Assembly (NCBI GenBank): GCA_021735045.1
Contig: JAIPHU010000007.1
Span: forward strand, 1 to 32,000
From: Candidatus Omnitrophota bacterium
GTDB taxonomy: Bacteria; Omnitrophota; Gorgyraeia; Duberdicusellales; 4484-171
Direction of reading: 5' to 3'
DNA: 32,000 nucleotides
Positions 323 through 29,244 of this stretch are shown here, in pieces (the first letter of the stretch is position 1; each line of letters opens with the position of its first letter). Both the position numbers and the translations under genes were made by a program. The notes beneath the pieces are model-generated. The model had not been told where the DNA came from. It made no database searches and saw nothing but the letters and a program-made list of their open reading frames with translations.

Positions 323-1540
323 TTACTTTTTAAAAAAACTAAGAACTACTTTAATTACGTAATCTATTTTAGATTTTTCCATAAGCGGATAAATGGGCAG
401 GCTAACAACCTCTTTAATAACTTTATTAGTATTTTCCAACTTATAAGGAACTTTTGCCGTCTTAAAAGCTTTCATCTTATCGAGGCTGACTGGATAGTAG
501 CTTCTGGCAGAAATTCCTTTTGAATTCAAATAGCTGATAAATTTAGCTCTTGTTTTAGCAGAAACTTTTATAGTGTACAGGTGATAGACATGTGAACATG
601 GCATAGCGCATGGCGCATGGCGCATAGAGTTTAATATATTCTCAGAAATTCTTCTTTTCTTTACGCTATACTCTCTGCGCTTTGCGCTTTGCTCAGAAGG
701 TATCTGGATGTCTTTAATTGAAGAAAAGGCTTGATTATACTTTTGGGCGATTTGGATTCTTTTTTTATTGAAGGTATCAATATGTTTTAACTTCGCTAAT
801 AATACTGCGGCTTGAATTGAGTCTAGACGGGAATTGTAACCGCAGTAATCTGCTTTGTATGAGTCAGTTTGGCCATGGTTGCGTAAAACCTTGATTAATT
901 CAGCATCTTTTTTATTTTTTGCAGTAACCAAGCCGCCATCACCAAAACCACCGAGATTTTTAGAAGGGAAAAAACTAAAGGCGCCAAAATCTCCGATAGT
1001 ACCTAACTTCTTATTTCTAAAAGAAGCCCCGAAACTCTGTGCACAATCTTCTACAATAAATAATTTATTATCTTTAGCTATTTTTTTAATCGCAGCCATC
1101 TGGCAACTTCTACCATAAAGATGAACTGGAATAATGCCTACTGTGTTTTTAGTAATAGCTCTTTTAATATTTTCAGGGCTAATATTAAAAGAATCAGGGT
1201 CAATATCTACAAATACCGGTTTTGCTCCGGCCCTAATTATTACCTCTGCAGTTGCTAAAAAGGTAAAAGGCGTAGTTACAATTTCATCATCTTTATCAAA
1301 AAACTCTTTTTTCTTAAATTTTAAACAAGCGACACGTAAAGCAAGCAGCAATGCATCTGTACCGGAGGAAACCCCAATTGCATAGTTTATACCTAGATAT
1401 TTAGCAGCCTTTCTTTCAAATTTCTCTACCTTAGGCCCAAGCACCCATTGTTGACTGCTAAAACAATCTTTTAACTGCTTATCAACATCTTCCTTTAAGA
1501 ATTTATATTCTGGCTTTAAATCTAACAAAGGTACTTTCAC
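323..1540 (-). CDS. DegT/DnrJ/EryC1/StrS-family PLP-dependent sugar aminotransferase carrying a 32-codon in-frame insert
   Basis: 405-aa ORF with a GTG start at 1540 preceded by AAGG. Family-typical stretches are VPLLDLKPEY, GVSSGTDAL, SFFPSKNLGGFGDGG (Schiff-base Lys region) and HVYHLY. The insert is at 601-696. Confidence 0.9.
   Translation of the reverse strand: MKVPLLDLKPEYKFLKEDVDKQLKDCFSSQQWVLGPKVEKFERKAAKYLGINYAIGVSSGTDALLLALRVACLKFKKKEFFDKDDEIVTTPFTFLATAEVIIRAGAKPVFVDIDPDSFNISPENIKRAITKNTVGIIPVHLYGRSCQMAAIKKIAKDNKLFIVEDCAQSFGASFRNKKLGTIGDFGAFSFFPSKNLGGFGDGGLVTAKNKKDAELIKVLRNHGQTDSYKADYCGYNSRLDSIQAAVLLAKLKHIDTFNKKRIQIAQKYNQAFSSIKDIQIPSEQSAKRREYSVKKRRISENILNSMRHAPCAMPCSHVYHLYTIKVSAKTRAKFISYLNSKGISARSYYPVSLDKMKAFKTAKVPYKLENTNKVIKEVVSLPIYPLMEKSKIDYVIKVVLSFFKK
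601..696. repeat. word-built imperfect palindrome (GCGCATG heptads) lying in frame inside the DegT gene
   Basis: The arms at 601-629 and 671-696 pair around a 41-nt AT-rich loop, with mismatches at 625, 618 and 611 (7-nt spacing). The length is 96 nt, or 32 codons. G+C is clearly above that of the flanks. Confidence 0.75.
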
Positions 1541-1574
1541 TTTAACCTTTATCCTTTATCCTTTAACCTTAAAC
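1540..1574. repeat. five tandem heptamers CTTTAAC CTTTATC CTTTATC CTTTAAC CTTAAAC
   Basis: Read directly from the sequence. On the coding strand this is AAGGTTA/AAGGATA units. It spans the last codons and stop of the epimerase gene and the SD and start of the DegT gene. Confidence 0.8.
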
Positions 1575-2511
1575 GAAAGTAATCGACTGTTTTTTCTAGA
1601 CCTTCTTTAAAGTTAATTTTTGGTTGCCAATCTAATCCTTTTATAGCTTTACTAATATCGGCAAAAGTTTTCCTTACGTCACCAGGCCTAGGTTTTAGAT
1701 AGTCCGGCTTTAGGTCTTTTTTCGTTAAATCTTTTAAGAGTTTATAAAGCTGGTTTACTGAATAAGGGGCGCCTCCGGCAATATTAAAAACTTCCCCTCC
1801 AATATCATCTTTGGTCAAAGCCAAAATATTAGCTTCAACTACATTATCAATATAAGTAAAATCTCTTTCTTGCTGGCCGTCTCCATAAATCGGAGGGCTT
1901 TCATCGCTAAGTAAAGATGTTATGAATTTAGGAACTACTACTGCATAGCGATTCTCAAGCGATTGACGCGGGCCGAAAACATTAAAATAACGCAAACTAA
2001 CTACATCAACTCCATAAAGCTGGCTAAAAAGAGACCCGTAATGCTCATCCATCAATTTGGTTGCCGCATAAGGCGATACCGGTTTGGGAGAATCAGTCTC
2101 TTTTTCGGGAAAGTCAAAACGTTCGCCGTAAACTGAGCTGCTTGAGGCAAAAACTATTTTTTTTATCCCTTTCTCTTTGGCTTTTAAGAATAATTTTAAA
2201 GTCCCGGTAACATTAACCTCATGAAATTCAAAGGGGCTCTCAACTGATTTGGGTACGCTGCGTAAAGCCGCCTGATGACAAATTAAATCAATACCTTCTA
2301 AGGATTCTTCTAAAGCTAAATCATCAGTTAAACTTTTTTCGATAAATTTGATTTTATCTAAATTATCTTTTATATTTTCTAATTTGCCGGTTATTAAATT
2401 ATCTAAAACAGTAACTTCTGCACCTAATTCAATTAATCTATCTACAATATGGGAACCAATAAACCCCGCCCCACCGGTAACTAACACTTTCTTGTCTTTT
2501 AATTCTTCCAC
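1549..2511 (-). CDS. NAD-dependent sugar epimerase/dehydratase (extended SDR; WbpP/TviC-like UDP-N-acetylhexosamine 4-epimerase suspected)
   Basis: 320 aa with an N-terminal Rossmann VTGGAGFIGS, LDNLITG, and the catalytic YAATK (YxxxK). It is adjacent to a hexosamine-type nucleotide-sugar dehydrogenase. The substrate assignment is inference. Confidence 0.88.
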   Translation of the reverse strand: MEELKDKKVLVTGGAGFIGSHIVDRLIELGAEVTVLDNLITGKLENIKDNLDKIKFIEKSLTDDLALEESLEGIDLICHQAALRSVPKSVESPFEFHEVNVTGTLKLFLKAKEKGIKKIVFASSSSVYGERFDFPEKETDSPKPVSPYAATKLMDEHYGSLFSQLYGVDVVSLRYFNVFGPRQSLENRYAVVVPKFITSLLSDESPPIYGDGQQERDFTYIDNVVEANILALTKDDIGGEVFNIAGGAPYSVNQLYKLLKDLTKKDLKPDYLKPRPGDVRKTFADISKAIKGLDWQPKINFKEGLEKTVDYFRLRLKDKG

Positions 2512-2514
2512 AAC

Positions 2515-3813
2515 TTAAAGCCTCTTAACATTTTTATAATCTTTTTTGTAAACATTTCTGGTATCAAATATTAATTTTGCGTTTTTTCTAATCCTTTGAT
2601 AGTCAACCCCTTTATGGCCGGTAACCACAACTACGCAATCATATTTTTTTAAATTTTTAATGCTAATAGATGCCCTCTTTAAATTAATACTGCTAACCTT
2701 TAGATAAGGAACTAAAGGGTCGTAATAATCTACTTTTATTTTTCTTTTTTGCAATTTTTCAATAATATCTAAGGCCGGAGATTCTCTTAGGTCTTTTACA
2801 TCTTTTTTATAAGTTACCCCTAAGATTAAAATTTTAGAATTATTTATTTTTTTCTTGCCTAAAGCTTTATCTACCCGCTTGATTACATAATCAGGCATAA
2901 AGTGATCGATATAAGAAGCTAAATCAATCATTTTAGTTTTAAACCCCATCTTTTTTGATTTCCAGGATAAAAACTTGGGATCAGTAGGAATACAATGCCC
3001 GCCGATACCCGGGCCGGGATAAAAAGGCATAAAACCAAATGGCTTTGTTTTTGCCGCCTCAATTACCTCCCAAATACTTATCCCCAGCTTCTCAGCCACT
3101 ATGGTAAATTCTAAGATTAAAGCAATATTAACTAACCTGTAGGTGTTTTCAAGCAGTTTAGAAGTTTCAGCCACCTCAGGACTTGAGACCGAATGAACTT
3201 CTTTTATTATCTTAGAATAAAGGCTCTTTGCCAGCTTAGTTGACCTAGAAGATAGGCCTCCCACTAGTTTAGGTATCTTTGTGACAGGATGTTTTTTATC
3301 ACCTGGGCTTACTCTTTCCGGAGAAAAACACAAAAAGAAATCTTTTTCTTCTACCAAACCGCTCTTTTTTAACTCTGGCAATACCACTTCTCTGGTTGTA
3401 GTAGGGTAAGAAGTACTTTCTAAAATAATTAACTGGCCTTTTTTTATATATTTTTTAATAGTTTTGGAAGCTTTTTTTACAAAGGATATATCCGGAGTTT
3501 TTACTTTTCGCAGTGGAGTAGGTACACATATAATAATAATATCAGCTTTTCCTATACACCTTTCATCCTTAATAGGCATAAATTTATTCTTTTTAATTAG
3601 TTTCAAAGGCTGATTTGATTCTATATCGGCAATATATTTTTTTCCTTTCTCAAGGCGTTTTATCCGCTTACTATTGGTATCATATCCATAGACAAAAAAA
3701 TTCTTTTTAGCAAAATTTACCACCAAAGGCAACCCCACATAACCTAGGCCGATTATGCAAATTTTTGCTCTCTTTTTGTCTATTTTCGCTTTTAGCTGTT
3801 TGTAGTTATTCAT
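2515..3813 (-). CDS. nucleotide-sugar 6-dehydrogenase (WbpO/TviB/WecC-like UDP-N-acetylhexosamine dehydrogenase)
   Basis: 432 aa with an N-terminal IIGLGYVGLP Rossmann fold and the catalytic-Cys motif GIGGHCIPTDP, typical of the UDP-glucose/GDP-mannose dehydrogenase family. It lies 3 nt upstream of the epimerase gene. Confidence 0.85.
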   Translation of the reverse strand: MNNYKQLKAKIDKKRAKICIIGLGYVGLPLVVNFAKKNFFVYGYDTNSKRIKRLEKGKKYIADIESNQPLKLIKKNKFMPIKDERCIGKADIIIICVPTPLRKVKTPDISFVKKASKTIKKYIKKGQLIILESTSYPTTTREVVLPELKKSGLVEEKDFFLCFSPERVSPGDKKHPVTKIPKLVGGLSSRSTKLAKSLYSKIIKEVHSVSSPEVAETSKLLENTYRLVNIALILEFTIVAEKLGISIWEVIEAAKTKPFGFMPFYPGPGIGGHCIPTDPKFLSWKSKKMGFKTKMIDLASYIDHFMPDYVIKRVDKALGKKKINNSKILILGVTYKKDVKDLRESPALDIIEKLQKRKIKVDYYDPLVPYLKVSSINLKRASISIKNLKKYDCVVVVTGHKGVDYQRIRKNAKLIFDTRNVYKKDYKNVKRL

Positions 3814-3827
3814 TTTTGGTTAATGGA

Positions 3828-5999
3828 TTAATACGAGGATTTTGCCCCGTCGAAGGTCTGGTCAAAGCCTACATTTATATCCGGATAAGCTTTAAGCCTA
3901 AAGGCCAACCAAAACGTTAAGTCTTTTCCACCTTCATCTTGACGGTCTAGATATACACCTACATCCATCCACCAGCAATGAAGGTCAACTCTAAAAGCAT
4001 ACTCCTGTCTTTCTAGGTCACCGGTTGAATATTCATAACGCATATAGTTTTTAAACTGTAGCTTAGGGGTTAAGTTATAAGTAAAATCTAGAGTACCTTG
4101 TGAATCCTCCCCTTTATAATAACGATGCCCCAGAGCCACCGAATACCTGGACTCATCTTTTATCTCATCTTCATATTGGATTGGTACAGTCTCTTGACTC
4201 TTAAAAGTTAAATCCGCATTAATTTCTTTAAACGCGTCTTGGGTAAAATTATATTCGACATCAGAGTTAAAGGAAATCTTTTTTATTGGATATATCTCTA
4301 GGTCAGCTTTTGCATTATCAAAATGGCTGCCGATACCGCCTTCATCATTTATCCGGTATTCAACTGACGGAGAAAAATATAAAAAATCCCAGGTTCTTTG
4401 CTCGTTTTTTGCCTGCAATTTATTTTTAAGGCGAAAGATAATACTTTCTTTACGTTCCAGGTCATCCTCGTCATCAAATTGAAATAAATTATTATTTGAA
4501 ACTGTTGGATCATGAATATAGTTATATTCAATCTCAGGAGTTAAAACATGGCGCATTTCATCTATATCTTGGCCAAAAAAACTAAAAGAATAATCTAGGT
4601 TCTTATACAACTTTGTATTTAAAGTTATCCCCATAGTAGGCGCTACCCTTAAGATATTATCCTTGCCAAACTTATTACGAGAATAATAACTGGTATAAGC
4701 TCCCAGATAAGGATTAATTGAAAGCCAAGCTATTCTATCTTGATAACTTAATATATTTTCAGAATAAATCCGAAAAGCATCGTTGGTTTCACCAGAGTCA
4801 GCTGTGGTGTCTCTTAAGTTGCCTAGCTTATCAATTGATTCAAAATAAAATTTACTTTTACCTAATTTTTGCCGGTAAAAATTATATTCTAGCTGAGGTA
4901 GGTATTCGGATTCATCAAAAAAACGATTTACCCTTTTTTGAACAAATAAAGAAAGACTTGAATTATTAAAAGAATAGGTGGTAAGTAAGTAACTCTCCGG
5001 CTCCGGTTCTATATCAAATTCTTGCTCAAAGAAATCTTTCATAAAATACTTATCTGAAAACTTATGGAACTCACTGGTTACCGAGAGCCTGTTTGTAGGC
5101 TGCCAACTATAGGAAAATTGAGCTTTATACCGGTCATCTTCGAAATCAGAGTCATTTTTTCTTTCCGGATAATCATCAAAAAGCTCTGACCTGTTTTCTA
5201 ATTTATAAAGATCATCCTTAATTCTATAATATTTAATTAAAGCTTTTCCGTAATCTTTACTTTCAAACTTATGGTTTATTCCTGTACCCAAGCCTCTATC
5301 TTGATACCAATCAAAACTAACTTTACCTTTATTATTTTCATCTAAACTATAGCGCCAACGGGTAAGCATATAGTAACCCCAATCACTATTTTTCCCCGGA
5401 ATAACTTCAACCGGAAAAGATTTATCTTTCAGGCTTTGGGAAAAATAAGGAATATAGAAAATAGGAAAATCCCCTACTTTCAGCACCATATTCTTAGCTA
5501 CTACTTTTTGGCCCGGATAGATAATTATTTTTTTGGCAACTAGCCTATAGTGAGGGTCTTCTAGGTCACAAGTTGTAACATAGCCCTTATTTAATACATA
5601 CTTATCTTTTTTTTCTTTTTTGACTTGATCGGCCTGGCCATGAAAGGGCGGTTGGGTTATCTTTACTCTTTCTATATCAGCTTTCATGGTATTGAAATCA
5701 TAAACCACGTCTTGGCCATAAGCTGTAGAGCCTTCTCTTTCTATCTTTACATCACCGATTATATGAGCCTTATTACTTTCAGCATCATAGGTGGCCTTAT
5801 CACAATAGACCTTAACGTCTTTATATTCCATAGTTACGTTACCCTCAGCTACTATCTTGCGTTGCTGCTGGAGATAGTTTATCTGGTCGGCATTAATTGT
5901 AACCGGAAGAGGCCTTTCTTGAGCCAAGGCAAATAAGGAAAGAAAACTAAAAAAGATAGTAAAAATTAAAGAAAAAAGCTGTATTGGCTTTATTTTCAT
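3828..5999 (-). CDS. lptD: LPS-assembly outer-membrane protein LptD (OstA family)
   Basis: 723 aa with a signal peptide MKIKPIQLFSLIFTIFFSFLSLFALAQE. An OstA-like N-terminal region follows (VTINADQINY...AEGNVTMEYKDVKVYCDKATYD...IIGDVKI). The C-terminal part is long, aromatic-rich and beta-barrel-like, ending in ...GAKSSY. Confidence 0.75.
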   Translation of the reverse strand: MKIKPIQLFSLIFTIFFSFLSLFALAQERPLPVTINADQINYLQQQRKIVAEGNVTMEYKDVKVYCDKATYDAESNKAHIIGDVKIEREGSTAYGQDVVYDFNTMKADIERVKITQPPFHGQADQVKKEKKDKYVLNKGYVTTCDLEDPHYRLVAKKIIIYPGQKVVAKNMVLKVGDFPIFYIPYFSQSLKDKSFPVEVIPGKNSDWGYYMLTRWRYSLDENNKGKVSFDWYQDRGLGTGINHKFESKDYGKALIKYYRIKDDLYKLENRSELFDDYPERKNDSDFEDDRYKAQFSYSWQPTNRLSVTSEFHKFSDKYFMKDFFEQEFDIEPEPESYLLTTYSFNNSSLSLFVQKRVNRFFDESEYLPQLEYNFYRQKLGKSKFYFESIDKLGNLRDTTADSGETNDAFRIYSENILSYQDRIAWLSINPYLGAYTSYYSRNKFGKDNILRVAPTMGITLNTKLYKNLDYSFSFFGQDIDEMRHVLTPEIEYNYIHDPTVSNNNLFQFDDEDDLERKESIIFRLKNKLQAKNEQRTWDFLYFSPSVEYRINDEGGIGSHFDNAKADLEIYPIKKISFNSDVEYNFTQDAFKEINADLTFKSQETVPIQYEDEIKDESRYSVALGHRYYKGEDSQGTLDFTYNLTPKLQFKNYMRYEYSTGDLERQEYAFRVDLHCWWMDVGVYLDRQDEGGKDLTFWLAFRLKAYPDINVGFDQTFDGAKSSY

Positions 6000-6077
6000 A
6001 TATTAAATCGAAATCTTTCTAAATTATTATTATTTTATCATATAAAGAAAAAATAATCTATTTATAACTACGCCTTT

Positions 6078-6737
6078 TTATTCTTGATCTAACTTTTTCT
6101 TTAGCTTATCCCAGTCAGCCAAAAATCTTTTAATCCCGATATCGGTAAGCGGGTGTTTCATCAATTTTTCAATAACTGCAAAAGGAACAGTGGCAATATC
6201 GGCGCCAATTCTAGCAGCTTCTAAAAAGTGAATCGGATGCCTGATAGAGGCAACTATAATTTCGGTATCAATCCCAAAGTTATTATAAATTGTTTTAATA
6301 TCAGCTACTAAATCCATTCCCTCGGCTGAAATATCATCAAGCCTGCCCACAAAAGGGGAAACAAAAGTCGCTCCAGCTTTTGCTACCAATAATGCTTGTG
6401 AAGCAGAAAAACAAAGAGTAAGGTTTGTTTTTATTCCAGCTAAAGAAAGTTCTTTAGTTGTAGCAAGGCCTTCGGTGGTACAAGGTACCTTAATTACAAT
6501 ATTTGAAGCAATTTTAGCTAACTCTTTAGCTTCTTTAACCATCCCTTCCTTTTCTAAGCTGGTAACTTCAGCACTAACCGGGCCTTTAACTACTTCAACT
6601 ATTTTTTTAAGTTGATCGATGGGTTCACTACCTTCCCTAGATAAAAGAGTTGGATTGGTGGTAACCCCATCTAAGACCCCATAAGAATGAGCTTTTTTAA
6701 TTTGTTCTAAATTTGCCGTATCGATAAATAACTTCAT
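6078..6737 (-). CDS. tal: transaldolase / fructose-6-phosphate aldolase (short subfamily)
   Basis: 219 aa with [19 protein letters not shown] and IVIKVPCT (Schiff-base Lys context), typical of the roughly 220-aa Tal/Fsa class. A strong SD AAGGAGGT lies upstream. Confidence 0.9.
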
Positions 6738-6769
6738 CCTTTAACCTCCTTAATATAAAATAAGATTCA

Positions 6770-6798
6770 CACAGATAAAAAAAGATATACACAGATAA
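6770..6798. repeat. two exact CACAGATAA 9-mers, 20 nt apart, in the ROK|tal spacer
   Basis: CACAGATAA occurs at 6770-6778 and 6790-6798. The reverse complement TTATCTGTG(T) is tandem at 7945-7961, on the other side of the ROK gene. Confidence 0.7.
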
Positions 6799-6799
6799 T

Positions 6800-7774
6800 T
6801 TAATCTTTCCTAACTACTAAACTTTCCTTTGCTAACAGGCCTGCACCGATTATTCCGGCATTTTTTAGTTTGGCTTTCCGGAGTTTAAGGCCTTCTAAAT
6901 TCGGCCACATTGCTTGCTCTTTTATAACTGAAATTAGATAAGGCCTAAACAATTTATAGGCACCAGATACTCCTCCGCCTAAAATTATTGCCTGAGGATT
7001 AAAAATATTTACCATTCCGGCTAAAAAGCGGCCTAGATAAAAAGAAAACTCTTTCCAAATACAAATTGCATTTTTTTCGCCTTTTAGGCCGCGCTGATAG
7101 ATATCTTTTACTCCTTCGACTCCCTTGATGGTTCGACTGCGCTCACCAGTTGGTCGCTCAGGACTCCGCTCACTTCGTTCGCTTCGTTCCTTTTTAACAA
7201 GCTTATTATATCTTTTAACTAAATAGCTATTTCCCACAAAAGTTTCAATACAGCCGTAGTTTCCACATCCGCAACGGTTCTTTTTTAAACTTATGGGAAA
7301 ATGGCCTAACTCTAAAGCACTAGTTTTTCTGCGTAAGATTTGCTGATCAAAGATAACTGAACTGCCCAAACCTGTCCCTAAGGTAAGAAAAATTGCCCGG
7401 CTTAAATTCTTACCGGCTCCTAAGCGAGCTTCGGCTAAAGCAAAAACATTAGCATCGTTATCAACTGATACAGGAATTTTTACTTTTTTCTCTAAAGATT
7501 TCTTTAAAGGGAACTTCTTCCAGCCTAAAATATTAGGTAGATAGTAGATAAAACCTTTTTCTATATTAATAATCCCTGGAGCACCGATTCCTATTGCTTT
7601 AACTTTGTATTTTTTGAAACTAGCTAATAAGGAAACTATCTCCGAAATAAAAAACTCTTTTTCTCTTAACTTGCTGGAAGAATATACTTTTTTAGCCAAT
7701 ATTTTGCCTTTTGAGTCTATAACCCCAGCTTTTATATATGTACCGCCCCAATCAATCCCAAGGTATGTGCTCAT
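6800..7774 (-). CDS. ROK-family sugar kinase (glucokinase-like) with a GC-rich in-frame repeat tract
   Basis: 324 aa with the N-terminal ATP motif GIDWGGT, DNDANV, and the ROK Zn/Cys signature GHFPI...CGCGNYGCIE. An atypical ERSERSERSPERPTGERSRT segment is encoded at about 7113-7190. Confidence 0.82.
   Translation of the reverse strand: MSTYLGIDWGGTYIKAGVIDSKGKILAKKVYSSSKLREKEFFISEIVSLLASFKKYKVKAIGIGAPGIINIEKGFIYYLPNILGWKKFPLKKSLEKKVKIPVSVDNDANVFALAEARLGAGKNLSRAIFLTLGTGLGSSVIFDQQILRRKTSALELGHFPISLKKNRCGCGNYGCIETFVGNSYLVKRYNKLVKKERSERSERSPERPTGERSRTIKGVEGVKDIYQRGLKGEKNAICIWKEFSFYLGRFLAGMVNIFNPQAIILGGGVSGAYKLFRPYLISVIKEQAMWPNLEGLKLRKAKLKNAGIIGAGLLAKESLVVRKD
7113..7190. repeat. GC-rich in-frame repeat tract inside the ROK kinase gene
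   Basis: The coding strand reads GAACGAAGC GAACGAAGT GAGCGGAGT (a 9-nt period giving ERS ERS ERS), followed by repeated GAGCG and GTCGAA words. G+C is far above that of the surrounding gene. Confidence 0.7.
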
Positions 7775-7860
7775 AACTAATTCCTCTTATATTTATTGTA
7801 TTTTGTACTATTAAAAAGTTTATAACAGTATATCCTAAAACAACTATTTTTCAACCAAAA

Positions 7861-7998
7861 CCACAGAATCCGTTTCATTTCATTCTAATGCAACAAAACA
7901 GGTTCAAACAAAAATGTTGCATAAGGCTACAAAAAAATTCTATTTTATCTGTGTTATCTGTAAAACATGCAATTAACTGTATTCTGTGACTTCTGTGG
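7861..7998. repeat. word-repeat/fold-back tract downstream of tRNA-Pro (CACAGAA/CACAGATAA words)
   Basis: CCACAGAAT at 7861-7869 is complementary to ATTCTGTG/TTCTGTGG at 7981-7998. An inner hairpin pairs ATGCAAC (7888-7894) with GTTGCAT (7916-7922). TTATCTGTG and TTATCTGT are tandem at 7945-7961. Confidence 0.6.
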
Positions 7999-8001
7999 TA
8001 C

Positions 8002-8075
8002 TCGGGAGGGCGGGATTCGAACCCGCGACCTCTGCGTCCCGAACGCAGCGCGCTGCCAAGCTGCGCTACCTCCCG
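8002..8075 (-). tRNA. tRNA-Pro (anticodon CGG)
   Basis: 74-nt cloverleaf folded by hand from CGGGAGG TA GCGC AGCTTGGCA GCGC G CTGCG TTCGGGA CGCAG AGGTC GCGGG TTCGAAT CCCGC CCTCCCG A. It has a 7-bp acceptor stem, a GTTCGAATC T-loop, U33 and G37. CCA is not encoded. Confidence 0.92.
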
Positions 8076-8115
8076 ATAAACATGAAATTATTTAGAGTAT
8101 ACCTTAATGTTTATC

Positions 8116-8146
8116 GGCACTGAGCTGAATTACTCAGCGAAGTGCC
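8116..8146. repeat. 31-nt GC-rich hairpin, family D copy 1
   Basis: GGCACT GA GCTGA ATTAC TCAGC GA AGTGCC forms a 6-bp stem, a 2x2 GA/GA internal loop, a 5-bp stem and a 5-nt loop. It lies 18 nt after the ribE stop. The second copy is at 27885-27915. Confidence 0.75.
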
Positions 8147-8164
8147 TTCTCGAGAAGATGTTCG

Positions 8165-8731
8165 TCATTTTTTCAATAGATAATCAAATTCAACGTTGAG
8201 CCAGTGGCCAGCTTTTCTAAACTTTAGGTTTGTATTGTTGTAAGTAAAAGGGATAATATCTAAAGTAAAAGAAGTCGGTAAAACTTTTTTCACAGTTAAA
8301 GAAACACCATCTAAAGCAATGGACCCTTTTTCAACTATCTTATTTTTATTTTTATTCGGTAAGTATATTTCAAACTCCCAGTAACCGCTTCTATCAGTAA
8401 CCCTTTTTATCTTTAGTACTGAATCAATGTGGCCTAAAACAAAATGGCCGCCTAATTTATCTCCAACCTCTAGGGCCGGCTCTAAGTTAACTGGTTCTTT
8501 GTTTTTAAAAAATTTAATATTTGTATCAGCTAGAGTAGAAGCTGCTAGATCAAAAATAAGTTTTGATTTATCTTTTTCTACTACAGTAAGACAAGCCCCA
8601 TTTATGGCAACACTGTCTGATACTTCTGTTTGTTTATAAACTAAATCAGAAGCTATCTCTAATTTAGAAATCTTGCCTCTTTTTGTAAGCTTTAACACAG
8701 ATCCTACTTCCTTAATGATACCGGTAAACAC
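8165..8731 (-). CDS. ribE: riboflavin synthase alpha chain
   Basis: 188 aa with an MFTGII N-terminus, two lumazine-binding-type repeats (SVAINGACLTV and SIALDGVSLTV) and GGHFVLGHID. Confidence 0.85.
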   Translation of the reverse strand: MFTGIIKEVGSVLKLTKRGKISKLEIASDLVYKQTEVSDSVAINGACLTVVEKDKSKLIFDLAASTLADTNIKFFKNKEPVNLEPALEVGDKLGGHFVLGHIDSVLKIKRVTDRSGYWEFEIYLPNKNKNKIVEKGSIALDGVSLTVKKVLPTSFTLDIIPFTYNNTNLKFRKAGHWLNVEFDYLLKK

Positions 8732-8793
8732 TAAATAACTCCTTTGTTTTCAATAGTTTAACAGCTGTGGGCATAAAACTTAACTTAATCCAA

Positions 8794-8802
8794 ATTATAC
8801 CA
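8794..8802 (-). promoter_or_regulatory. candidate extended -10 promoter element for ribE
   Basis: The minus strand reads TGGTATAAT (TGnTATAAT), about 60 nt upstream of the ribE start and downstream of the 8881-8914 terminator. There is no convincing -35. Confidence 0.3.
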
Positions 8803-8880
8803 TAGAAAATATAAGATAAAAGAATATTCCCTTAGATAATTATTAAGTAGGGTGTACCTTTGTAGGACGTCTGCGGGGTA

Positions 8881-8914
8881 TAACAAAACCCCGTGTTTTT
8901 TAACACGGGGCTTT
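8881..8914 (-). terminator. intrinsic terminator after the Lys-rich protein gene
   Basis: The minus strand reads CCCCGTGTT AAAA AACACGGGG followed by TTTTGTTAT. This is a 9-bp GC-rich stem with a 4-nt loop and a U-tract, about 30 nt after the stop at 8945. Confidence 0.8.
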
Positions 8915-8944
8915 ATTTTATCTTATGAAGTTAAAACTTAACTT

Positions 8945-9121
8945 TTACTTCTTTTTCTTTTTAGTTGTTTTCTTTTTCTTAGTTGTCTTTTTCTTAGTGG
9001 ATTTCTTTTTCTTAGTTGTCTTTTTCTTTTTAGCTGCTTTTTTCTTAGTTGTCTTCTTTTTCTTTGCTGCTTTTTTCTTCGTTGTCTTTTTCTTTCGAGT
9101 TGTCTTCTTTCTTGCGGCCAT
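8945..9121 (-). CDS. 58-aa Lys/Thr/Ala-repeat basic protein (histone-H1-like / nucleoid-associated candidate)
   Basis: The ATG at 9121 is preceded by AGGAGGTG with a 5-nt spacer. The product is MAARKKTTRKKKTTKKKAAKKKKTTKKK.... The gene has its own candidate promoter (9172-9200) and terminator (8881-8914). The ORF-track start at 9151 lacks an SD. Confidence 0.6.
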   Translation of the reverse strand: MAARKKTTRKKKTTKKKAAKKKKTTKKKAAKKKKTTKKKKSTKKKTTKKKKTTKKKKK

Positions 9122-9171
9122 CCAATCACCTCCTGTTTTTTGACCCAACACTATTGGGTACCTATATATTT

Positions 9172-9200
9172 AATTTAACAAACTTTTTTTTAAATGTCAA
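9172..9200 (-). promoter_or_regulatory. candidate sigma70-type promoter for the Lys-rich protein gene
   Basis: The minus strand has TTGACA (9200-9195), a 17-nt spacer, and TAAATT (9177-9172) preceded by TGT. It sits about 50 nt upstream of the ATG at 9121. Confidence 0.4.
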
Positions 9201-9235
9201 CCATTTAAAAAAATATTTTGTAAAAAAAATAAAAA

Positions 9236-9610
9236 TTATTTTTTAGGAAGAGAAATTTTTTTGGCTTGGCGCCAAAGATATTCTAAATTATAAAACTCTC
9301 TGGCATTTTCGGTAAAGATATGAACTATTACATTTGAAAAATCAATTAAGATCCAATTGTAGGTTTTATCAACTTCTGAATGTTGAACTTGTATTTTTTC
9401 TTTTTTACTTTTTCTAATTATTTGATCATATATCGCCTTAACTTGGGTTGTGCTATCTCCTGAACAAATCAAATAGTAGTTACAAATTGTACTTATCTTT
9501 TTTAGATCTAAAATCACTACATCTTTTGCCTGCTTTTCTTGAGCAAACTTTGCAATTTTTTTTGCATCCGATAAACCGGTTGTATTTTTTGTTTTGATAG
9601 TATCCTCCAT
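9236..9610 (-). CDS. rsfS: ribosomal silencing factor RsfS (iojap family)
   Basis: 124 aa with DVVILDLKKIS...YYLICSG.S..QV.AI and NWILIDFSNVIVHIF...REFYNLEYLW, typical of RsfS/DUF143. Confidence 0.85.
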   Translation of the reverse strand: MEDTIKTKNTTGLSDAKKIAKFAQEKQAKDVVILDLKKISTICNYYLICSGDSTTQVKAIYDQIIRKSKKEKIQVQHSEVDKTYNWILIDFSNVIVHIFTENAREFYNLEYLWRQAKKISLPKK

Positions 9611-10879
9611 TTAATTCCTTATTATCGCTTTTATCTTTGTAGCTAATTCATTATCCAAGTTACCTACGGCTGATATAGAAATATTCCTAAAATCAAAGAG
9701 CTTTTTGGAAAAATCCCTTATTTGACAAGGCTCAATTGCTTTAACTTGCTTTTTTATTTTATCTAAGCTTTTAATATCTTCTGCTTTAATATAGCTTTGA
9801 GCAAAATAAAACATCCTTCCTTGTGATTGTTCTAGGCTCATCGATAACTGCCCCAGAAAATAATCCTTAGCCCTGGTTAACTCACTTTTAGTTATTGGCT
9901 TATTCTTTATTTTGTTCAGTTCTTTTTTAATCACGGATAAAGCCAGGCTGATATTTTCTTTATCTAGGCCAACCTTTATTATAAATGCACCACTATCTTT
10001 AAAATTCTTTACAGAAGTTGAAACAGCATAACATAGCGACCTCTTCTCCCGCAAACTTTCAAATAAACGGCTGCTCATATTTGCCCCGAGGATAACATGA
10101 AGAAGTTTCTGAACTATTCTTTTATCGCTTTTATAAGGTATGCTTCTAAAACCAAGACAAAGGTGTGATTGTTGAGTATCTCTTTTTTCTGTTTTTATCT
10201 TTATACCTTTTGATTTAACTGGTTTCTTTTTATATATTTTTTTTCTTTTCTTTTTAATTTTTGTTTTTATTTTTTCTGAAATTTTTGTTTTTATTTTATC
10301 AAGAGAATAATCCCCGCAAAAAGATACAACTATGTTAGAGGGAATATAAAAACTATTTTTAAAATTAACTAAGTCTTTTCTTGTTATCGCCTTCACGCTT
10401 TTTTCAGTTCCAATTATATCTTCTCCTAAAGGATGGCCTTTCCAAAGAAGGCTATCTAAGATAGTTGCCGCACAGGAGCCGGGGAGATCGTTATACATCT
10501 TTATCTCTTCTAAAACAACATCTCTTTCTTTGTTGATCTCATAAGACAAAAGTGAAGGGTTTAATACCATATCTAGGAGTATATCTAGAGTGATTAAGGT
10601 ATTCTTTTTTAGAAAGTGCGCATAGTAAGCTGTCATCTCTTGGGAAGTAAAACCATTTAAGATACCACCGCGGCCTTCAATCTCTCTTTTTATTTTTTTG
10701 TAGTTATAACAAGAGCTTCCTTTAAAGACCATATGCTCTAGAAAATGAGCAATACCCTTTTGCTGTTTTTTCTCAAATCGGGCTCCGGTTTTTAAAAAGA
10801 CCCCTAAGGAAGCTGTTTCAAACTCACCAAAAGAAGAATGAATTAAATTAAGAGGCCCTACTTTGACAATTTTATACAT
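9611..10879 (-). CDS. M16-family zinc peptidase (insulinase-like)
   Basis: 422 aa with the inverted zinc motif HFLEHMVFKGS (HxxEH) near the N-terminus and M16 two-domain length. A Lys-rich linker (KTKIKKKRKKIYKKKPVKSKGIKIK) joins the halves. Confidence 0.85.
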   Translation of the reverse strand: MYKIVKVGPLNLIHSSFGEFETASLGVFLKTGARFEKKQQKGIAHFLEHMVFKGSSCYNYKKIKREIEGRGGILNGFTSQEMTAYYAHFLKKNTLITLDILLDMVLNPSLLSYEINKERDVVLEEIKMYNDLPGSCAATILDSLLWKGHPLGEDIIGTEKSVKAITRKDLVNFKNSFYIPSNIVVSFCGDYSLDKIKTKISEKIKTKIKKKRKKIYKKKPVKSKGIKIKTEKRDTQQSHLCLGFRSIPYKSDKRIVQKLLHVILGANMSSRLFESLREKRSLCYAVSTSVKNFKDSGAFIIKVGLDKENISLALSVIKKELNKIKNKPITKSELTRAKDYFLGQLSMSLEQSQGRMFYFAQSYIKAEDIKSLDKIKKQVKAIEPCQIRDFSKKLFDFRNISISAVGNLDNELATKIKAIIRN

Positions 10880-10898
10880 AAAAAAGGCTAAAAAGAAA

Positions 10899-11681
10899 TC
10901 AAGATCTTAATCTCCGAACATGATCTTCTAATTTTTTTAAAAAGTTTTTCTGCTTATAATGTTTATCGATAAAATTTACAATTTCGCTTCCTACGATAAC
11001 TCCATCGGAAAACGAACTAATTTTTTTAACCTGTTGATGATTATGAATACCAAATCCTACACATACCGGGGTCTTGGTTATCTTTTTTATATTTTTTATA
11101 TGCAAAGATATATCACTATATTTAAGAGCTTTTGGGCCGGTTATTCCGGTAATTGAAACATAGTAGATAAAACCTTTTGAATTCTTGGCAATTTTCTTTA
11201 CCCGTTTAGCTGATGTAGTTGGAGTAATGAAAAAAATAGGATCTATATCAAACCTTTTAGCTTCACCAATATAGTTATTGCTTTCTTCAAAAGGTAGATC
11301 TACCAAAATTGTTCCTGAAATTTTATTTTCTTTGGCCTTTTTAAAAAAATTAGAGAGCTTATATTGAAATACAGGATTATAATAAGACATAACCACCATA
11401 GGAATCTTTATATCTTTTTTTATTTTTTTAATATTGTCAAAAAAGCTATCTACAGTTATTTTTTGTTTTAGGGCACAAGCAGAAGCTTGTTGAATTATCG
11501 GGCCATCGGCTAGAGGATCAGAAAAAGGAAAGCCAAACTCAATAATATCAACCCCTCCCTTTTGAAGAGCAAGAAAGATATCATTTGTATAAGCTATTTT
11601 AGGAAATCCAAAAGGAAAGTAGGCAATAAAAGCCTTCTTGCCTTCTTGATTTAGTTGTTTGAATTTATCTTCTAATCTCAT
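10899..11681 (-). CDS. trpA: tryptophan synthase alpha chain
   Basis: 260 aa with GFPFSDPLADGPIIQQA and YYVSITGITG, in trp gene context. Confidence 0.9.
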   Translation of the reverse strand: MRLEDKFKQLNQEGKKAFIAYFPFGFPKIAYTNDIFLALQKGGVDIIEFGFPFSDPLADGPIIQQASACALKQKITVDSFFDNIKKIKKDIKIPMVVMSYYNPVFQYKLSNFFKKAKENKISGTILVDLPFEESNNYIGEAKRFDIDPIFFITPTTSAKRVKKIAKNSKGFIYYVSITGITGPKALKYSDISLHIKNIKKITKTPVCVGFGIHNHQQVKKISSFSDGVIVGSEIVNFIDKHYKQKNFLKKLEDHVRRLRS

Positions 11682-11703
11682 GAATTAACTCGCTTCTCTG
11701 TGT

Positions 11704-11779
11704 TTCGTTCTACGTTCTATGTTCAACGTTCTACGTTTGATAATTTTCAACGTTGAACGTCGCACGTCGAACGTTGCAC
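11704..11779. repeat. family A word-palindrome, copy A1 (trpB|trpA spacer)
   Basis: The left arm is GTTCTAC GTTCTAT GTTCAAC GTTCTAC GT (11707-11736). The right arm is AACGTTGAACGTCGCACGTCGAACG (11749-11773). It is near-identical to the copy at 19944-20015. Confidence 0.8.
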
Positions 11780-11783
11780 AAAA

Positions 11784-15990: not shown

Positions 15991-16082
15991 CATCAACGAA
16001 TTTACCAATCTCATACGAATATACGAATATTTATTTCTACTTATTCGTAAATTCGTAATTGATTCGTATATTCGTCGATTGA
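15991..16082. repeat. family B word-palindrome, copy B1 (murA|trpG spacer)
   Basis: The sequence is CATCAACGAATTTACCAATCTCATACGAATATACGAATA ... TATTCGTAAATTCGTAATTGATTCGTATATTCGTCGATTGAT. The core 16015-16029 pairs with 16042-16056 at 14 of 15 positions. Confidence 0.8.
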
Positions 16083-17392: not shown

Positions 17393-17494
17393 CATCATCA
17401 ACGAATTTACTAATCTCATACGAATATAGGAATGAATAAAAATAACGGTTAGTCGTGAACCAAGAATCAGAAACTAATTCGTACATTCGTTGAT
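17393..17494. repeat. family B word-palindrome, copy B2 (prmC|murA spacer), right arm partly replaced
   Basis: The left arm matches B1 at 36 of 39 positions. The outer ATCAACGAAT (17397-17406) pairs with ATTCGTTGAT (17485-17494). Confidence 0.7.
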
Positions 17495-17500
17495 TATCTT

Positions 17501-19386: not shown

Positions 19387-19540
19387 AAATAAACAAATTA
19401 CAAACAATATACAATATACAACTTCCAAACCGGAAAGTATGTTGCTTTTTCTGAATTTATAAATCCTTTATTCTTTTTTGTTTATTGGATATTGCAATTT
19501 GTGATTTGTTTGTAATTTGGAATTTGTTTATTGTTTATTT
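19387..19540. repeat. family E word-palindrome in the rpmE|prfA spacer
   Basis: The left arm is AAATAAACAAATTACAAACAATATACAATATACAACTTCCAA. The right arm is TTGGATATTGCAATTTGTGATTTGTTTGTAATTTGGAATTTGTTTATTGTTTATTT. They share complementary TTGTTTGTAATTTG and GTTTATTT blocks, and the arms differ by whole-heptamer indels. Confidence 0.65.
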
Positions 19541-19547: not shown

Positions 19548-19763
19548 TTATCTTCCTTTACCCTTGCTCTTTTTGTACTTCTTATAGAACTTGTCTACTC
19601 TTCCTTCCGAGTCAACAAATCTTTGCTTTCCGGTAAAAAAAGGATGACACTTAGAACAAATTTCTACATTTATCGTTTCTTTTGTAGAACGAGTGTGAAC
19701 TACATTCCCACAAGCACACATAATTGTAGATTTTTTATAGTTAGGATGTCCTTTCTTTTTCAT
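19548..19763 (-). CDS. rpmE: 50S ribosomal protein L31 (Cys-containing type)
   Basis: 71 aa with [14 protein letters not shown]...[13 protein letters not shown] strong SD GGAGGT lies upstream. Confidence 0.92.
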
Positions 19764-19831
19764 CTCTTACCTCCATAATTTTCTTTGTTTTTTAAAACTA
19801 AAATTTAATTCGTTAACTTCTTCTAACTTAT

Positions 19832-19906
19832 CTAGCTATTGATGGAACCAATAATTGCTTTTTTCCAAGACAAGTAGCTTTTGCTGTCGCAAAAGATTGG
19901 TTTCAT
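19832..19906 (-). CDS. candidate 24-codon upstream sORF (MKPIFCDSKSYLSWKKAIIGSINS)
   Basis: It starts with an exact 23-nt copy of the rpmE SD/ATG/AAA region (19901-19923 = 19758-19780). A hairpin CTTTTGC-GACA-GCAAAAG lies inside it. I recognise no homology. Confidence 0.25.
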   Translation of the reverse strand: MKPIFCDSKSYLSWKKAIIGSINS

Positions 19907-19943
19907 CTCTTACCTCCATAATTACTTTAATATTTATCATTTT

Positions 19944-20015
19944 GTTCTACGTTCAATGTTCTACGTTCTACGTCAATAATATTTTTCAATAACGTTGAAC
20001 GTCGCACGTTGAACG
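19944..20015. repeat. family A word-palindrome, copy A2 (32 nt after the rho stop)
   Basis: The left arm 19944-19973 matches A1 at 28 of 30 positions. The right arm 19991-20015 matches A1 at 24 of 25. Confidence 0.8.
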
Positions 20016-20047
20016 AATAGTTAAATAGCTATGAATCATGTATTATA

Positions 20048-21915: not shown

Positions 21916-21922
21916 TTTTATT

Positions 21923-27884: not shown

Positions 27885-27915
27885 GGCATCGAGCCGACTT
27901 CCTCGGCGAGATGCC
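27885..27915. repeat. 31-nt GC-rich hairpin, family D copy 2
   Basis: GGCATC GA GCCGA CTTCC TCGGC GA GATGCC has the same architecture as 8116-8146, with compensatory changes. It lies 22 nt after the pgk stop. Confidence 0.75.
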
Positions 27916-27937
27916 TTAACTATCTAAATAAGATTTC

Positions 27938-29122
27938 TCATTTCATTGAAAGAGCTGAAATTCCCGGCAAATCCTTCCCTTCAAGAAATTGCAGAGAAGC
28001 TCCTCCACCAGTTGAGATATGAGACATCTGATCGGATAGTTTAAATTTTTTTACAGCGGCAGCAGTATCTCCACCACCAATAACCGAAATAGCTTCTGAT
28101 TCAGCTATCGCTTCAGCTATCGCTTTGGTCCCTTGAGCAAACTTATCCTTTTCAAAAATACCCATAGGGCCGTTCCAAACTATAGTTTTAGCATCTTTAA
28201 TTTTTTGACTGAATTCTTTTTGAGTTTTAGGGCCAATATCTACGCCAATCCAACCTGATTTAATATCGGCAGATTCGGTAGTTTCTACATTTTCTCCCTG
28301 CTTAATATCATCTGTTATTAGATGATCTATAGGTAATAATAGTTCTACTTTCTTTTCTTCTGCTTTGGCTAATATTTTTTTAACTACCTCAAACATATCT
28401 TCTTCTAGAAGCGAAGAACCAATATCTACTCCTTTTACTTTTAAAAATGTATAAGCCATAGCTCCGCCGATAACTATCGAATCAGCTTTATCCATCATAT
28501 TTTCAATAACCGGTATCTTATCAGATACCTTGGCTCCGCCTAAAATAAAAACAAATGGTTTCTGAGGCTCAGTTAAAACTTTTTGAAAATATTGAATTTC
28601 TTTATCAATTAAAAAACCTGCTGCAGAATCTAGAAAATGAGTTACTCCTTCTGTAGACGCATGAGCTCTGTGGGCTGTACCAAAAGCATCATTTACATAT
28701 AAATCAGCTAAAGAAGCTAACTGCTTTGCAAAGTCTTGATCATTTGCTTTTTCTTGAGAATAAAATCTTAAATTTTCTAAAAGAATAACTTCACCATCTT
28801 TTAATTTATCAATCTCTTCCTCTACATTTTTGCCAATACAGTCGTCAGCCATTTTAACCGGCTGATCAATCAACTGACTCAAGCGCTTTGCTACTGGCTT
28901 TAAGCTAAACTCCTCTTTTTTCTGGCCTTTAGGCCTCCCTAGGTGGCTAACTAAAATTAACTTTGCCCCAGACTCCCGAATATAGTTTATAGTATCTAAG
29001 GCTGCCTTGATCCTTGAGTCATCGGTAATATTTCTATCTGAATCTAGAGGAACGTTAAAATCAGCCCTGATCAATACTTTTTTACCAGCTAAATCTAGAT
29101 CTTTTACAGATTTTTTTGCCAT
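27938..29122 (-). CDS. pgk: phosphoglycerate kinase
   Basis: 394 aa with VLIRADFNVP, SHLGRPKG and GGGDTAAA. Confidence 0.95.
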   Translation of the reverse strand: MAKKSVKDLDLAGKKVLIRADFNVPLDSDRNITDDSRIKAALDTINYIRESGAKLILVSHLGRPKGQKKEEFSLKPVAKRLSQLIDQPVKMADDCIGKNVEEEIDKLKDGEVILLENLRFYSQEKANDQDFAKQLASLADLYVNDAFGTAHRAHASTEGVTHFLDSAAGFLIDKEIQYFQKVLTEPQKPFVFILGGAKVSDKIPVIENMMDKADSIVIGGAMAYTFLKVKGVDIGSSLLEEDMFEVVKKILAKAEEKKVELLLPIDHLITDDIKQGENVETTESADIKSGWIGVDIGPKTQKEFSQKIKDAKTIVWNGPMGIFEKDKFAQGTKAIAEAIAESEAISVIGGGDTAAAVKKFKLSDQMSHISTGGGASLQFLEGKDLPGISALSMK

Positions 29123-29156
29123 ACTTCTCCTCTTACTGATTAAATGGTTAATTAGT

Positions 29157-29244
29157 CATCATCACCGAATATACGAATTTTTTACGAATATACGAATAAA
29201 TATCTATGCCGATTCGTAAATTCGTATAGATTAGTAAATTCGAT
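29157..29244. repeat. family B word-palindrome, copy B3 (gap|pgk spacer)
   Basis: The sequence is CATCATCACCGAATATACGAATTTTTTACGAATATACGAATA ... GATTCGTAAATTCGTATAGATTAGTAAATTCGAT. The core 29184-29197 pairs with 29212-29225, with the same A.A mismatch as B1. Confidence 0.75.

Follow-up and report, generated by a model that had tools for sequence, protein, structure and literature searches.

Fold-back elements built of tandem short words were found in a 32-kb stretch of DNA from a Candidatus Omnitrophota bacterium (GenBank assembly GCA_021735045.1, contig JAIPHU010000007.1, positions 1 to 32,000; hereafter the window). In each element, a run of short words faces a run of approximately complementary words. 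We favour, with about even confidence, the reading that they are small (~60–150 nt), non-coding, non-autonomous, proliferating fold-back minisatellites, in which whole-word slippage homogenises the arms and whose dispersal is suggested by their distribution. They form multi-copy families within one genome, lying at junctions of co-directional housekeeping genes and in one permissive protein loop, and their turnover between related genomes, by gain, loss and replacement, is fast.

An initial annotation of the window had listed arrays of this kind, and Tandem Repeats Finder (TRF) placed every one of them where it had been reported. The long open reading frames (ORFs) are all on the minus strand and the GC content is about 34%. 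The elements and related arrays are as follows.

601–694: DegT insert, within the minus-strand DegT ORF (323–1540); left arm of GCGCATG words (601–627), right arm of TGCGCTT words (673–694); TRF arrays 601–625 (period 7, 3.6 copies) facing 676–692.
1540–1574: plain tandem array of CTTTAAC-type heptamers; TRF period 7, 5.0 copies, 89%.
6755–6798: ROK to fsa spacer, direct repeats with CACAGATAA words; TRF period 20, 2.2 copies.
7861–7999: tRNA-Pro trailer, a long-range asymmetric fold-back; CCACAGAA (7861–7869) facing two TTATCTGTG (7950–7966) and two TTCTGTG (7983–7999).
11699–11780: family A copy 1 (A1), trpB/trpA junction; 5′ arm of ACGTTC-T words (11705–11737), 3′ arm of C/T-GAACGT words (11748–11778); TRF arrays 11706–11737 facing 11750–11779.
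15991–16083: family B copy 1 (B1), murA/trpG junction; four ACGAAT words, a 14-nt loop and four ATTCGT words, with termini CATCAACGAAT and ATTCGTCGATTGA; TRF arrays 16013–16030 facing 16042–16075.
17393–17496: family B copy 2 (B2), prmC/murA junction, a degenerate third copy beyond those initially annotated; outer words and termini retained, inner part diverged.
19389–19540: family E, rpmE/prfA junction; ACAAATT/ATACAAT words (19389–19422) facing TTTGTGA/TTTGTAA/TTGTTTA words (19492–19540), with a small hairpin inside; TRF arrays 19391–19421 facing 19492–19539.
19944–20016: family A copy 2 (A2), rho/rpmE junction; TRF array 19944–19973, loop related to that of A1.
29156–29247: family B copy 3 (B3), gap/pgk junction; TRF arrays 29183–29198 facing 29212–29242.

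The elements punctuate a syntenic stretch of housekeeping genes, in which NCBIfam names were assigned to galT, gap, pgk, tpi, secG, polA, glgA, coaE, rho, rpmE, prfA, prmC and murA. The stretch also holds trpG-D-C-F-B-A, an M16 peptidase, rsfS, ribE, tRNA-Pro, a ROK kinase and fsa, and it ends in an LptD-like protein and three nucleotide-sugar enzymes, the last being the DegT-family aminotransferase. Folding z-scores were −3.6 for A1, −4.1 for A2, −8.5 for B1, −2.9 for B3 and −3.4 for the DegT insert; the degenerate B2 scored −1.2. The plain array at 1540–1574, described initially as five heptamers, was recovered with that copy number and period. On the sense strand it reads AAGGTTA/AAGGATA, containing Shine-Dalgarno-like AAGGA words, and it covers the epimerase stop and the DegT start.

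The window was searched with a scanner for tandem 6–9-nt word arrays having an inverted partner array within 150 nt, at relaxed and strict settings, with 100 dinucleotide shuffles as control. The relaxed setting recovered four fold-back loci (DegT, A1, B1 and B3) against a shuffle mean of 0.14 and a maximum of 2, a clear excess, and the strict setting recovered two (DegT and E) against 0.00. The initial annotation had described at least five elements that shared one design and were unrelated in sequence. The shared design was borne out, but not all of the families are unrelated, as GTTGAAC, GTTGGAC and GAACGTC differ by one or two bases. The tRNA-Pro trailer, counted among the five, follows the design only in part, one CACAGAA word standing against four complementary words 90–120 nt away.

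The annotation had also claimed that mismatches between the arms recur at one position of successive heptads. Base-by-base pairing of the DegT insert left 607, 611, 618 and 625 unpaired (625, 618 and 611 had been named), and pairing of A2 left 19960, 19962 and 19969 (19969 and 19962 had been named). For A1 the best gapless register placed the mismatches once per heptad, at 11711, 11718, 11725 and 11732, the positions initially named. The phasing held when further copies were added, across 165 stems. In the period-7 families, 28.6% of successive mismatch intervals were equal to 7, compared with 5.7% under random placement. The corresponding figure for period-8 families (intervals of 8–9) was 44% compared with 10.7%, but it is inflated, as this set consisted mostly of family B copies whose inner linker mismatch was fixed by the search pattern. 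The period-7 figure is therefore the unbiased one.

The phasing follows from the anatomy of the words. Each word consists of a conserved core of 5–6 nt (ACGAAT, ACGTTC or GCGCA) and a linker of 1–2 nt, and the mismatches recur at the word period because they are the linkers between conserved cores. The family A word is ACGTTC-T opposite C/T-GAACGT, which is equivalent to a self-complementary ACGT core with a 3-nt linker, and the DegT word has a GCGC(A) core with an ATG or TTT linker of 2–3 nt. In the window and five metagenome loci, the family A linker pair was almost never Watson-Crick (1 of 141); the weighted combinations were T.C 86, A.A 22, G.A 16, T.T 9, G.U 6 and Watson-Crick 1. The family B word is ACGAAT followed by 1–2 nt, opposite 1–2 nt followed by ATTCGT. 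Its linkers were assessed in the outer word pairs, which the search pattern left free: 17 of 54 were complementary, 19 were mismatched and 18 were of unequal length. The 4–5-nt internal loop was complementary in 1 of 54 copies, and the hexamers were retained, including a compensated ACGAAA/TTTCGT variant. Polarity in family B was fixed, with ACGAAT words 5′ of ATTCGT words and never the reverse. Word spacing varies (6, 7 or 8 nt).

Several features are those expected of whole-word slippage. The minimum free energy fold of A1 pairs the arms one word out of the best gapless register, and shifts of 7, 14 and 21 nt leave 18–25 Watson-Crick pairs in place. Word number is unequal between arms and between copies, with nine words in one locus (L123; loci of other genomes carry the prefix L) and expansion of one arm in L120. 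In L124 (681–942), four family A hairpin units stand in tandem, each of the form (ACGTTCT)n-ACGTTGA-GGATTAA-(ACGTCGA)n, and the heptamer phase is unbroken through the loops. Together with the concerted change of words described below, these slipped registers, unequal word numbers, one-arm expansions and tandem units support slippage, which was one of the two readings proposed initially. According to Mrazek 2007, as cited in PMC4679880, the long simple-sequence repeats of prokaryotes most often have units of 7 nt, and polymerase slippage is held responsible for them.

We suggest that whole-unit replication slippage would lengthen, shorten and homogenise each arm. A base difference between two words of opposite arms would thereby be copied into every word, giving one mismatch per period, as would follow if homogenisation within an arm outpaced correction between the two arms. 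The initial statement that nothing in a purely structural hairpin would maintain one mismatch per word is thus too strong, as homogenisation by arm would account for it without selection. Complementarity of the cores would be maintained by common descent together with selection or correction for pairing, and the linkers would be free. Where the core is self-complementary (ACGT, GCGC), a single tandem array could fold back on itself, which would provide a concrete path by which plain heptamer repeats could become long hairpins. Arm complementarity is compatible with selection and with inter-arm correction alike.

Turnover was examined in syntenic relatives from the same lake study, with 80–86% protein identity. 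Clean filled and empty orthologous junctions were found, as well as different word families at the same junction, as listed here.

prmC/murA: 155 nt in the window (B2); genes overlapping in L128 (empty site); 54 nt in L129, six ACGCACN words in direct orientation only.
trpC/trpF: 8 nt in the window; 104 nt in L128, GACGA family; 130 nt in L129, TTCGAAA words.
polA/glgA: genes overlapping in the window; 101 nt in L129.
ROK/fsa: 62 nt in the window; genes overlapping in L120; 147 nt in L130, a GACGA-family element.
trpB/trpA: A1 in the window; a different family in L128; no hairpin in L130.
rpmE/prfA: family E in the window; CTTTGGA words in L128 and L129.
rho/rpmE: A2 in the window; a hairpin of TTCGAAA words in L129.
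tRNA-Pro trailer: CACAGAA-type words in the window; the same word family in L130; an unrelated hairpin in L120.

Some of the elements separate genes that overlap or directly adjoin in close relatives, so that the elements themselves seem to have made these spacers. They take up much of the little non-coding DNA present in the small genomes of major uncultured lineages. Each genome has its own repertoire of families: B, A and CACAGA words occur in the window and GACGA, TTCGAAW and TTGGAC are missing from it; in the relatives the reverse is the case. Elements of the GACGA family end in terminal inverted repeats (GT[TA]CCGA...TCGGAAC). No consistent target-site duplication was seen in alignments of filled with empty junctions. 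ORF clustering detected no recurrent neighbouring or transposase-like ORF in 0.79 Mb around the elements, the neighbours being housekeeping genes, and a search for an autonomous element in the form of genes flanked by half-elements likewise returned housekeeping genes only.

The copy in a coding region shows that an array can also be accommodated within a protein. The window DegT has about 23 residues more than its closest homologs and its reading frame is intact. The insert corresponds to the inter-domain linker of solved homologs (query residues 285–315, against 3 residues in 7b0d). In all five DegT orthologs whose DNA was compared, this loop is encoded by heptamer arrays of conserved length. 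The words differ: four NTTGGAC in L120, four to five GAACGYC in L131, a GTTGGAC array in L132, and the GCGCATG fold-back in the window and L121. Arrays can therefore persist at one site while the word changes in concert. The L121 copy is the same element at the same site, and its arms are about 95% identical to those of the window (29 of 30 bases in one arm). The host proteins are only 64% identical, and the flanking coding sequence (CDS) is much less conserved than the arms. Independently of the host gene, discrete elements are thus also retained or exchanged. Other heptamer arrays occupy the neighbouring epimerase/DegT junction in relatives, with GAAGGAT words in L120 and CAATACT words in L132.

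For DegT and MurA of the window, a Candidatus Omnitrophica metagenome-assembled genome has proteins with 100% identity; the match came through DegT, exact-protein look-ups of Rho, TrpA and MurA (P0121) having returned nothing. A second contig, JAIPHE010000008.1, is identical to window positions 624–11540 and ends inside the DegT element (~624–626), its protein being annotated as partial. The assembly evidently broke at the repeat, since the contig end lies within the fold-back, and fold-back repeats of this kind fragment short-read assemblies.

A mini-hairpin, CCTGCC(N)GGCAGG, of 16–21 nt was observed nested in word arrays of five loci (L132 3750, in the DegT CDS; L128 407; L129 8081; L003 2263; L121 1227). 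In four of the five cases it lies exactly between the TTG and GAC of a TTGGAC-type word. The 21-nt copy in the L132 DegT loop, placed in this way, adds 7 residues to the protein. The nesting suggests either a target preference or a composite element.

Family B was sought in a collection of species-representative genomes with a two-arm pattern of 28 bases, taxa being taken from record titles. At least 117 loci were found in other genomes, labelled as Omnitrophota, many Patescibacteria or Candidate Phyla Radiation (CPR) groups, Bacteroidota (including a 1.3 Mb contig), Gammaproteobacteria, Planctomycetia, Anaerolineae and Pacearchaeota. The flanks outside the search pattern again carried ACGAAT/ATTCGT words and common termini, ATCAACGAAT...ATTCGTTGAT; the termini are ATCAACGAAT/ATTCGTTGAT or CTACGAAT/ATTCGTAG, with both ends paired. 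Viral contigs gave no family B match, and as a control with permuted words also gave none, that control was uninformative. Family A was narrower, occurring in five metagenome contigs. A different arrangement was seen in five CPR loci (L014, L036, L053, L062 and L103), in which a second stem, CCGAAGCCGC...GCGGCTTCGG, encloses the ATTCGTAAATTCGT words in its loop. This stem shows compensatory changes between genomes, and its pairing and that of the words are mutually exclusive or pseudoknotted.

The design is likewise widespread beyond the window, in keeping with the initial proposal of several word families with one architecture. In about 1 Mb of related DNA the scanner gave a density of 0.12–0.20 fold-back arrays per kb. 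In 787 kb of other genomes, 44 arrays had words other than ACGAAT; many were distinct and period 7 was dominant. Examples are GTAGGCA, AAAGTTA, CTGGATC, TAGGGTA (five copies in 4 kb), CATGTAA and CGAAATT, and a word set like that of family E (ACAAATC/TTTGTGA) was found in the CPR locus L059 (987–1057). In two CPR loci (L059 32–7492 and L020 2796–4573), ACGAAT arrays, fold-back or in a single orientation, stood at almost every ribosomal-protein operon junction examined. In L059 the conserved left terminus, (A/G)TGAGCT-ACGAAT, contains the TGA stop of the upstream gene, and 10–15 nt separate the right end from the next ATG. Half-elements, having one word orientation only, also occur at gene junctions, as in L020 and in the ACGCACN array of L129.

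Related arms and loops at unrelated junctions (A1 and A2; B1 to B3) point to dispersal. Copies may reach new junctions without needing an adjacent gene, and family B at least has perhaps passed between phyla. The alternative is that each array arose in place by independent slippage, with no dispersal, so that shared words would be mutational convergence. The DegT loop array, constant in length with a word that changes between orthologs, is as such an origin would have it, and orthologous junctions often hold some array. However, arms, loops and termini are common to copies from unrelated junctions (A1/A2, B1–B3 and the terminal inverted repeats of the GACGA family), the L121 arms match those of the window in spite of far more diverged flanking CDS, and the termini of family B are shared beyond the words and across phyla. 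We regard a wholly in-place origin as very improbable. It is largely contradicted for families A, B and GACGA, and may hold for single arrays such as that at 1540–1574.

Placement was classified at 96 B-type sites with ORFs on both sides within 600 nt: 84 lay between co-directional, 9 between divergent and 3 between convergent genes. In the window all the junctions are co-directional and lie inside operons, including trp and gap-pgk. The elements begin 0–17 nt past the upstream stop codon and end 10–50 nt short of the next start codon. Orientation was unbiased relative to transcription (49:35) and to GC skew (58:57), the latter being a weak test because the orientation marker is a single base.

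Such placement could also be that of functional RNA hairpins in polycistronic mRNA, serving 3′-end protection, processing or uncoupling of translation, with the mismatches averting a continuous duplex that RNase III can cleave. REP elements of E. coli have been described as regulators in the 3′ untranslated region. Besides the position just past a stop and before the next start, the strongly negative folding z-scores and the presence of some hairpin, whatever its family, at many orthologous junctions would suit this explanation. A few families fold better on the sense strand through G.U pairs (L128 rpmE, −34.6 vs −20.6; L129 murA, −39.3 vs −15.8). However, over 104 elements there was no difference between the sense and antisense strands, either in the number of G.U pairs (146 vs 137) or in the energy of folding (−24.8 vs −25.0 kcal/mol), and a weak trend in a smaller set (13 of 20, p=0.11) was gone in the large one. 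Many orthologous junctions are empty in close relatives, with overlapping genes, and the hairpins are therefore dispensable. One copy lies within a coding region, and sequence is conserved beyond what structure would call for. We consider a transcript-level function unlikely as the explanation of these elements. The symmetry of the hairpin looks like a property of the DNA, and selection on the transcript is not indicated; a symmetric hairpin would nevertheless fold in RNA in either orientation, so some role in RNA may exist.

To the narrower proposal that the elements are ordinary Rho-independent terminators or attenuators we give almost no credence. They are strong hairpins in intergenic DNA 3′ of genes, and could be mistaken for terminators or regulatory RNAs. 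However, they have no U-tract, none of them was returned by a terminator scan, they lie inside the trp and gap-pgk operons, and only 3 of 96 sites are convergent. The lack of a folding preference on the transcribed strand and the rarity between convergent genes show that they are not terminators, and this candidate was rejected. Classical terminators do exist in the window, such as that at 8889–8910 (read on the minus strand), which is conserved in a relative.

The second reading proposed initially, that the words are arrays of protein-recognition units, was more difficult to judge, as no binding protein was identified and concerted evolution could give the same picture. Here the words would be read by a sequence-specific nucleic-acid-binding protein, either of transposase type or a cold-shock or S1-type binder of RNA or single-stranded DNA, and the hairpin would be secondary. 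ACGAAT and the termini are constant across phyla, with linkers and internal loops free, and the polarity of ACGAAT before ATTCGT is fixed. Single-orientation half-elements stand at junctions (L020 and the L129 ACGCACN array), the family A linker is practically never complementary, and the CPR variant has its ATTCGT words looped by another, covarying stem, so that they are not paired with ACGAAT words. Ac transposase, which binds subterminal hexamer repeats, offers a precedent. Binding by a cold-shock or S1-type protein has been proposed for the TAACTGA repeats (PMC4679880). Against these points, dozens of unrelated word families per genome would call for many proteins or for one that reads shape, no candidate gene is linked to the elements, word spacing is variable, and word conservation is also an outcome of concerted evolution. 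We therefore treat recognition of the words as possible, but unlikely.

An extension of that idea, which we put forward as decidedly doubtful, is that these are horizontally spreading cis elements of ultra-small, largely symbiotic lineages (CPR, Omnitrophota and DPANN) and co-occurring Bacteroidota, read word by word by a conserved nucleic-acid-binding or strand-transfer protein. The unpaired linkers would then mark the recognised strand or register, by analogy with the extrahelical bases of integron attC sites. If a word-reading protein exists, the elements would amount either to a new system of mobilisation by hairpins or to a regulatory array that can be carried to operon junctions, ribosomal-protein operons among them.

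We return to proliferating fold-back minisatellites as the favoured explanation, against which several observations weigh. The loci compared were genome fragments, picked because they carry the element. No transposase, target-site duplication or target motif was found among them, so that mobility is argued from distribution. Sequence-specific recognition, as opposed to neutral homogenisation, could be why the same hexamer and termini recur across phyla and why the family A linker consistently fails to pair. The arrays at nearly every ribosomal-protein operon junction examined in the two CPR loci hint at function, and the few families with better folding on the sense strand do not sit easily with tolerated filler. 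On the favoured explanation the effect on the host is perhaps mainly that of a tolerated, selfish spacer filler that places a strong hairpin in the transcript of either strand.

Other features were noted in and around the window. Three related GC-rich hairpins of 31 nt, GGCAYYTCGCYGAG...CTCRGYGCC, lie at 8116–8146 (after ribE), at 27885–27915 (pgk/tpi) and in the ribE to tRNA spacer of L130. In each, a 6-bp stem is joined through a 2x2 internal loop to a 5-bp stem that is closed by a loop of 5 nt; these hairpins are REP-like and distinct from the word arrays. The ribosome-binding site and start region of rpmE are duplicated as a direct repeat of 20–23 nt (19761–19780 and 19904–19923), present as a single copy in L129, and the two copies bound a 143-nt segment with a small ORF and a hairpin. 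Upstream of gap (30264–30596; GGGGACGTTTCCCTCG...GAGGGAAACGTTCCC) is a stretch of about 150 nt with strong pairing, its best Rfam match having E=0.036, far below the gathering score. A small lysine-rich ORF on the minus strand (~8947–9110) encodes 58 residues in the NCBI contig and 47–50 in relatives; it is built of 33/51-nt tandem repeats and is followed by the classical terminator at 8889–8910.

Neither Rfam nor a limited literature search yielded an earlier account of fold-backs built as word arrays in prokaryotes, or of the ACGAAT family. Only tRNA-Pro reached the gathering score when the window was searched with Rfam 15. A permissive search of the elements returned only generic hairpin matches to miRNA precursors (20–33 bits, against thresholds of 70–100), and literature searches with the literal word strings gave nothing relevant. 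The initial annotation could not place the elements among repetitive extragenic palindromic (REP) sequences and bacterial interspersed mosaic elements (BIME), MITEs (miniature inverted-repeat transposable elements), Rickettsia palindromic elements (RPE) or CRISPR. We agree that none of these fits on its defining features, nor do TIGR arrays.

CRISPR arrays have variable spacers of about 30 nt and stand beside a cas gene, and integron attC sites have R″/L″–L′/R′ boxes on a hairpin of 57–141 nt, bounding cassettes near an integrase. The GTTCAAC (11721–11727) and GTTGAAC (11752–11758) words of family A fit the attC consensus RYYYAAC/GTTRRRY. The match was judged coincidental, as the words are tandem and about 31 nt apart, with no cassettes and no integrase among syntenic housekeeping genes. 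A likeness of TTCGAAT/GTTCRAC words to the tRNA T-loop was also dropped, because most word families do not fit it. TIGR arrays have conserved repeats with variable 9-nt spacers beside a tas gene (PMC12045711). CRISPR and TIGR were both rejected, since the words are contiguous without variable spacers and the neighbours are all housekeeping genes.

REP, BIME and REPIN sequences resemble the present elements as high-copy extragenic palindromes between co-directional genes, with occasional intragenic copies, mosaic or nested with small repeats and without target-site duplication (PMC3733652). A REP, however, is a GC-rich unit of 20–40 nt that carries a GTAG or CGTC tag, left unpaired, and is associated with a transposase, RAYT (PMC3733652). 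The present elements are 60–150 nt long and AT-rich, with 6-bp word helices separated by linkers and no tag in A, B or DegT. No RAYT was seen, and no recurrent transposase-like ORF either in the 0.79 Mb around the elements, but RAYTs are single-copy. On placement the comparison is mixed: REP sites lie mainly between unidirectional and convergent genes, downstream of coding regions, and the present elements have the same co-directional preference but are depleted between convergent genes.

MITEs such as Correia, ERIC/RU and RUP are likewise small non-autonomous inverted repeats that form long hairpins, are polymorphic in insertion and can supply stop or start signals (PMC3184786, PMC2759123). 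Terminal inverted repeats are present here as well, in that the whole element is an inverted repeat and the GACGA-family and B ends are paired. Unlike MITEs, the elements have no target-site duplication, and their arms are tandem words, not unique terminal inverted repeats. No parent insertion sequence with the same ends was found in the loci examined, which are genome fragments. RPE are palindromic repeats of Rickettsia inserted in frame at a permissive position of a housekeeping protein, to which they add a peptide. The DegT insert resembles them, being in frame at a tolerated inter-domain linker. It is set apart, by description, in its different host phylum, in being the coding copy of a mostly intergenic class, and in the heptamer arrays found at the site in all orthologs.

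The Foldback (FB) transposons of eukaryotes (PMC3169594) have inverted arms of short tandem subrepeats whose number varies between arms. They are the nearest in design, but they are eukaryotic elements of kilobase size, some of them with a linked transposase, and no homology is implied. Hairpin elements of organelles (sponge RHE, Allomyces double-hairpin elements and Fusarium palindromic microsatellites) also invade intergenic and some coding DNA and are patchy in close relatives (PMC2800124, PMC7218506). These belong to organellar genomes, and no word-array architecture has been documented in them.

Heptamer tandem repeats are also known from cyanobacteria as the STRR sequences. The closest precedent is the TAACTGA heptamers of Beggiatoaceae, Cyanobacteria and Bacteroidetes, which are likewise intergenic 7-nt tandem words, often just upstream of start codons and in ribosomal-protein operons; there too one word occurs across distant phyla, with "no mechanism evident", and slippage was invoked for the origin of the repeats (PMC4679880). 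The TAACTGA sets, however, are direct arrays (169 direct vs one indirect in BOGUAY) with no predicted secondary structure (PMC4679880). Apart from 1540–1574 and the L129 ACGCACN array, the present arrays face inverted partners, form hairpins of 60–150 nt and belong to many families per genome. The occurrence of one family across bacterial phyla and archaeal-labelled metagenome-assembled genomes parallels that of TAACTGA, and would make the fold-back arrays a second, structurally richer system in which to study the movement of short repeats.

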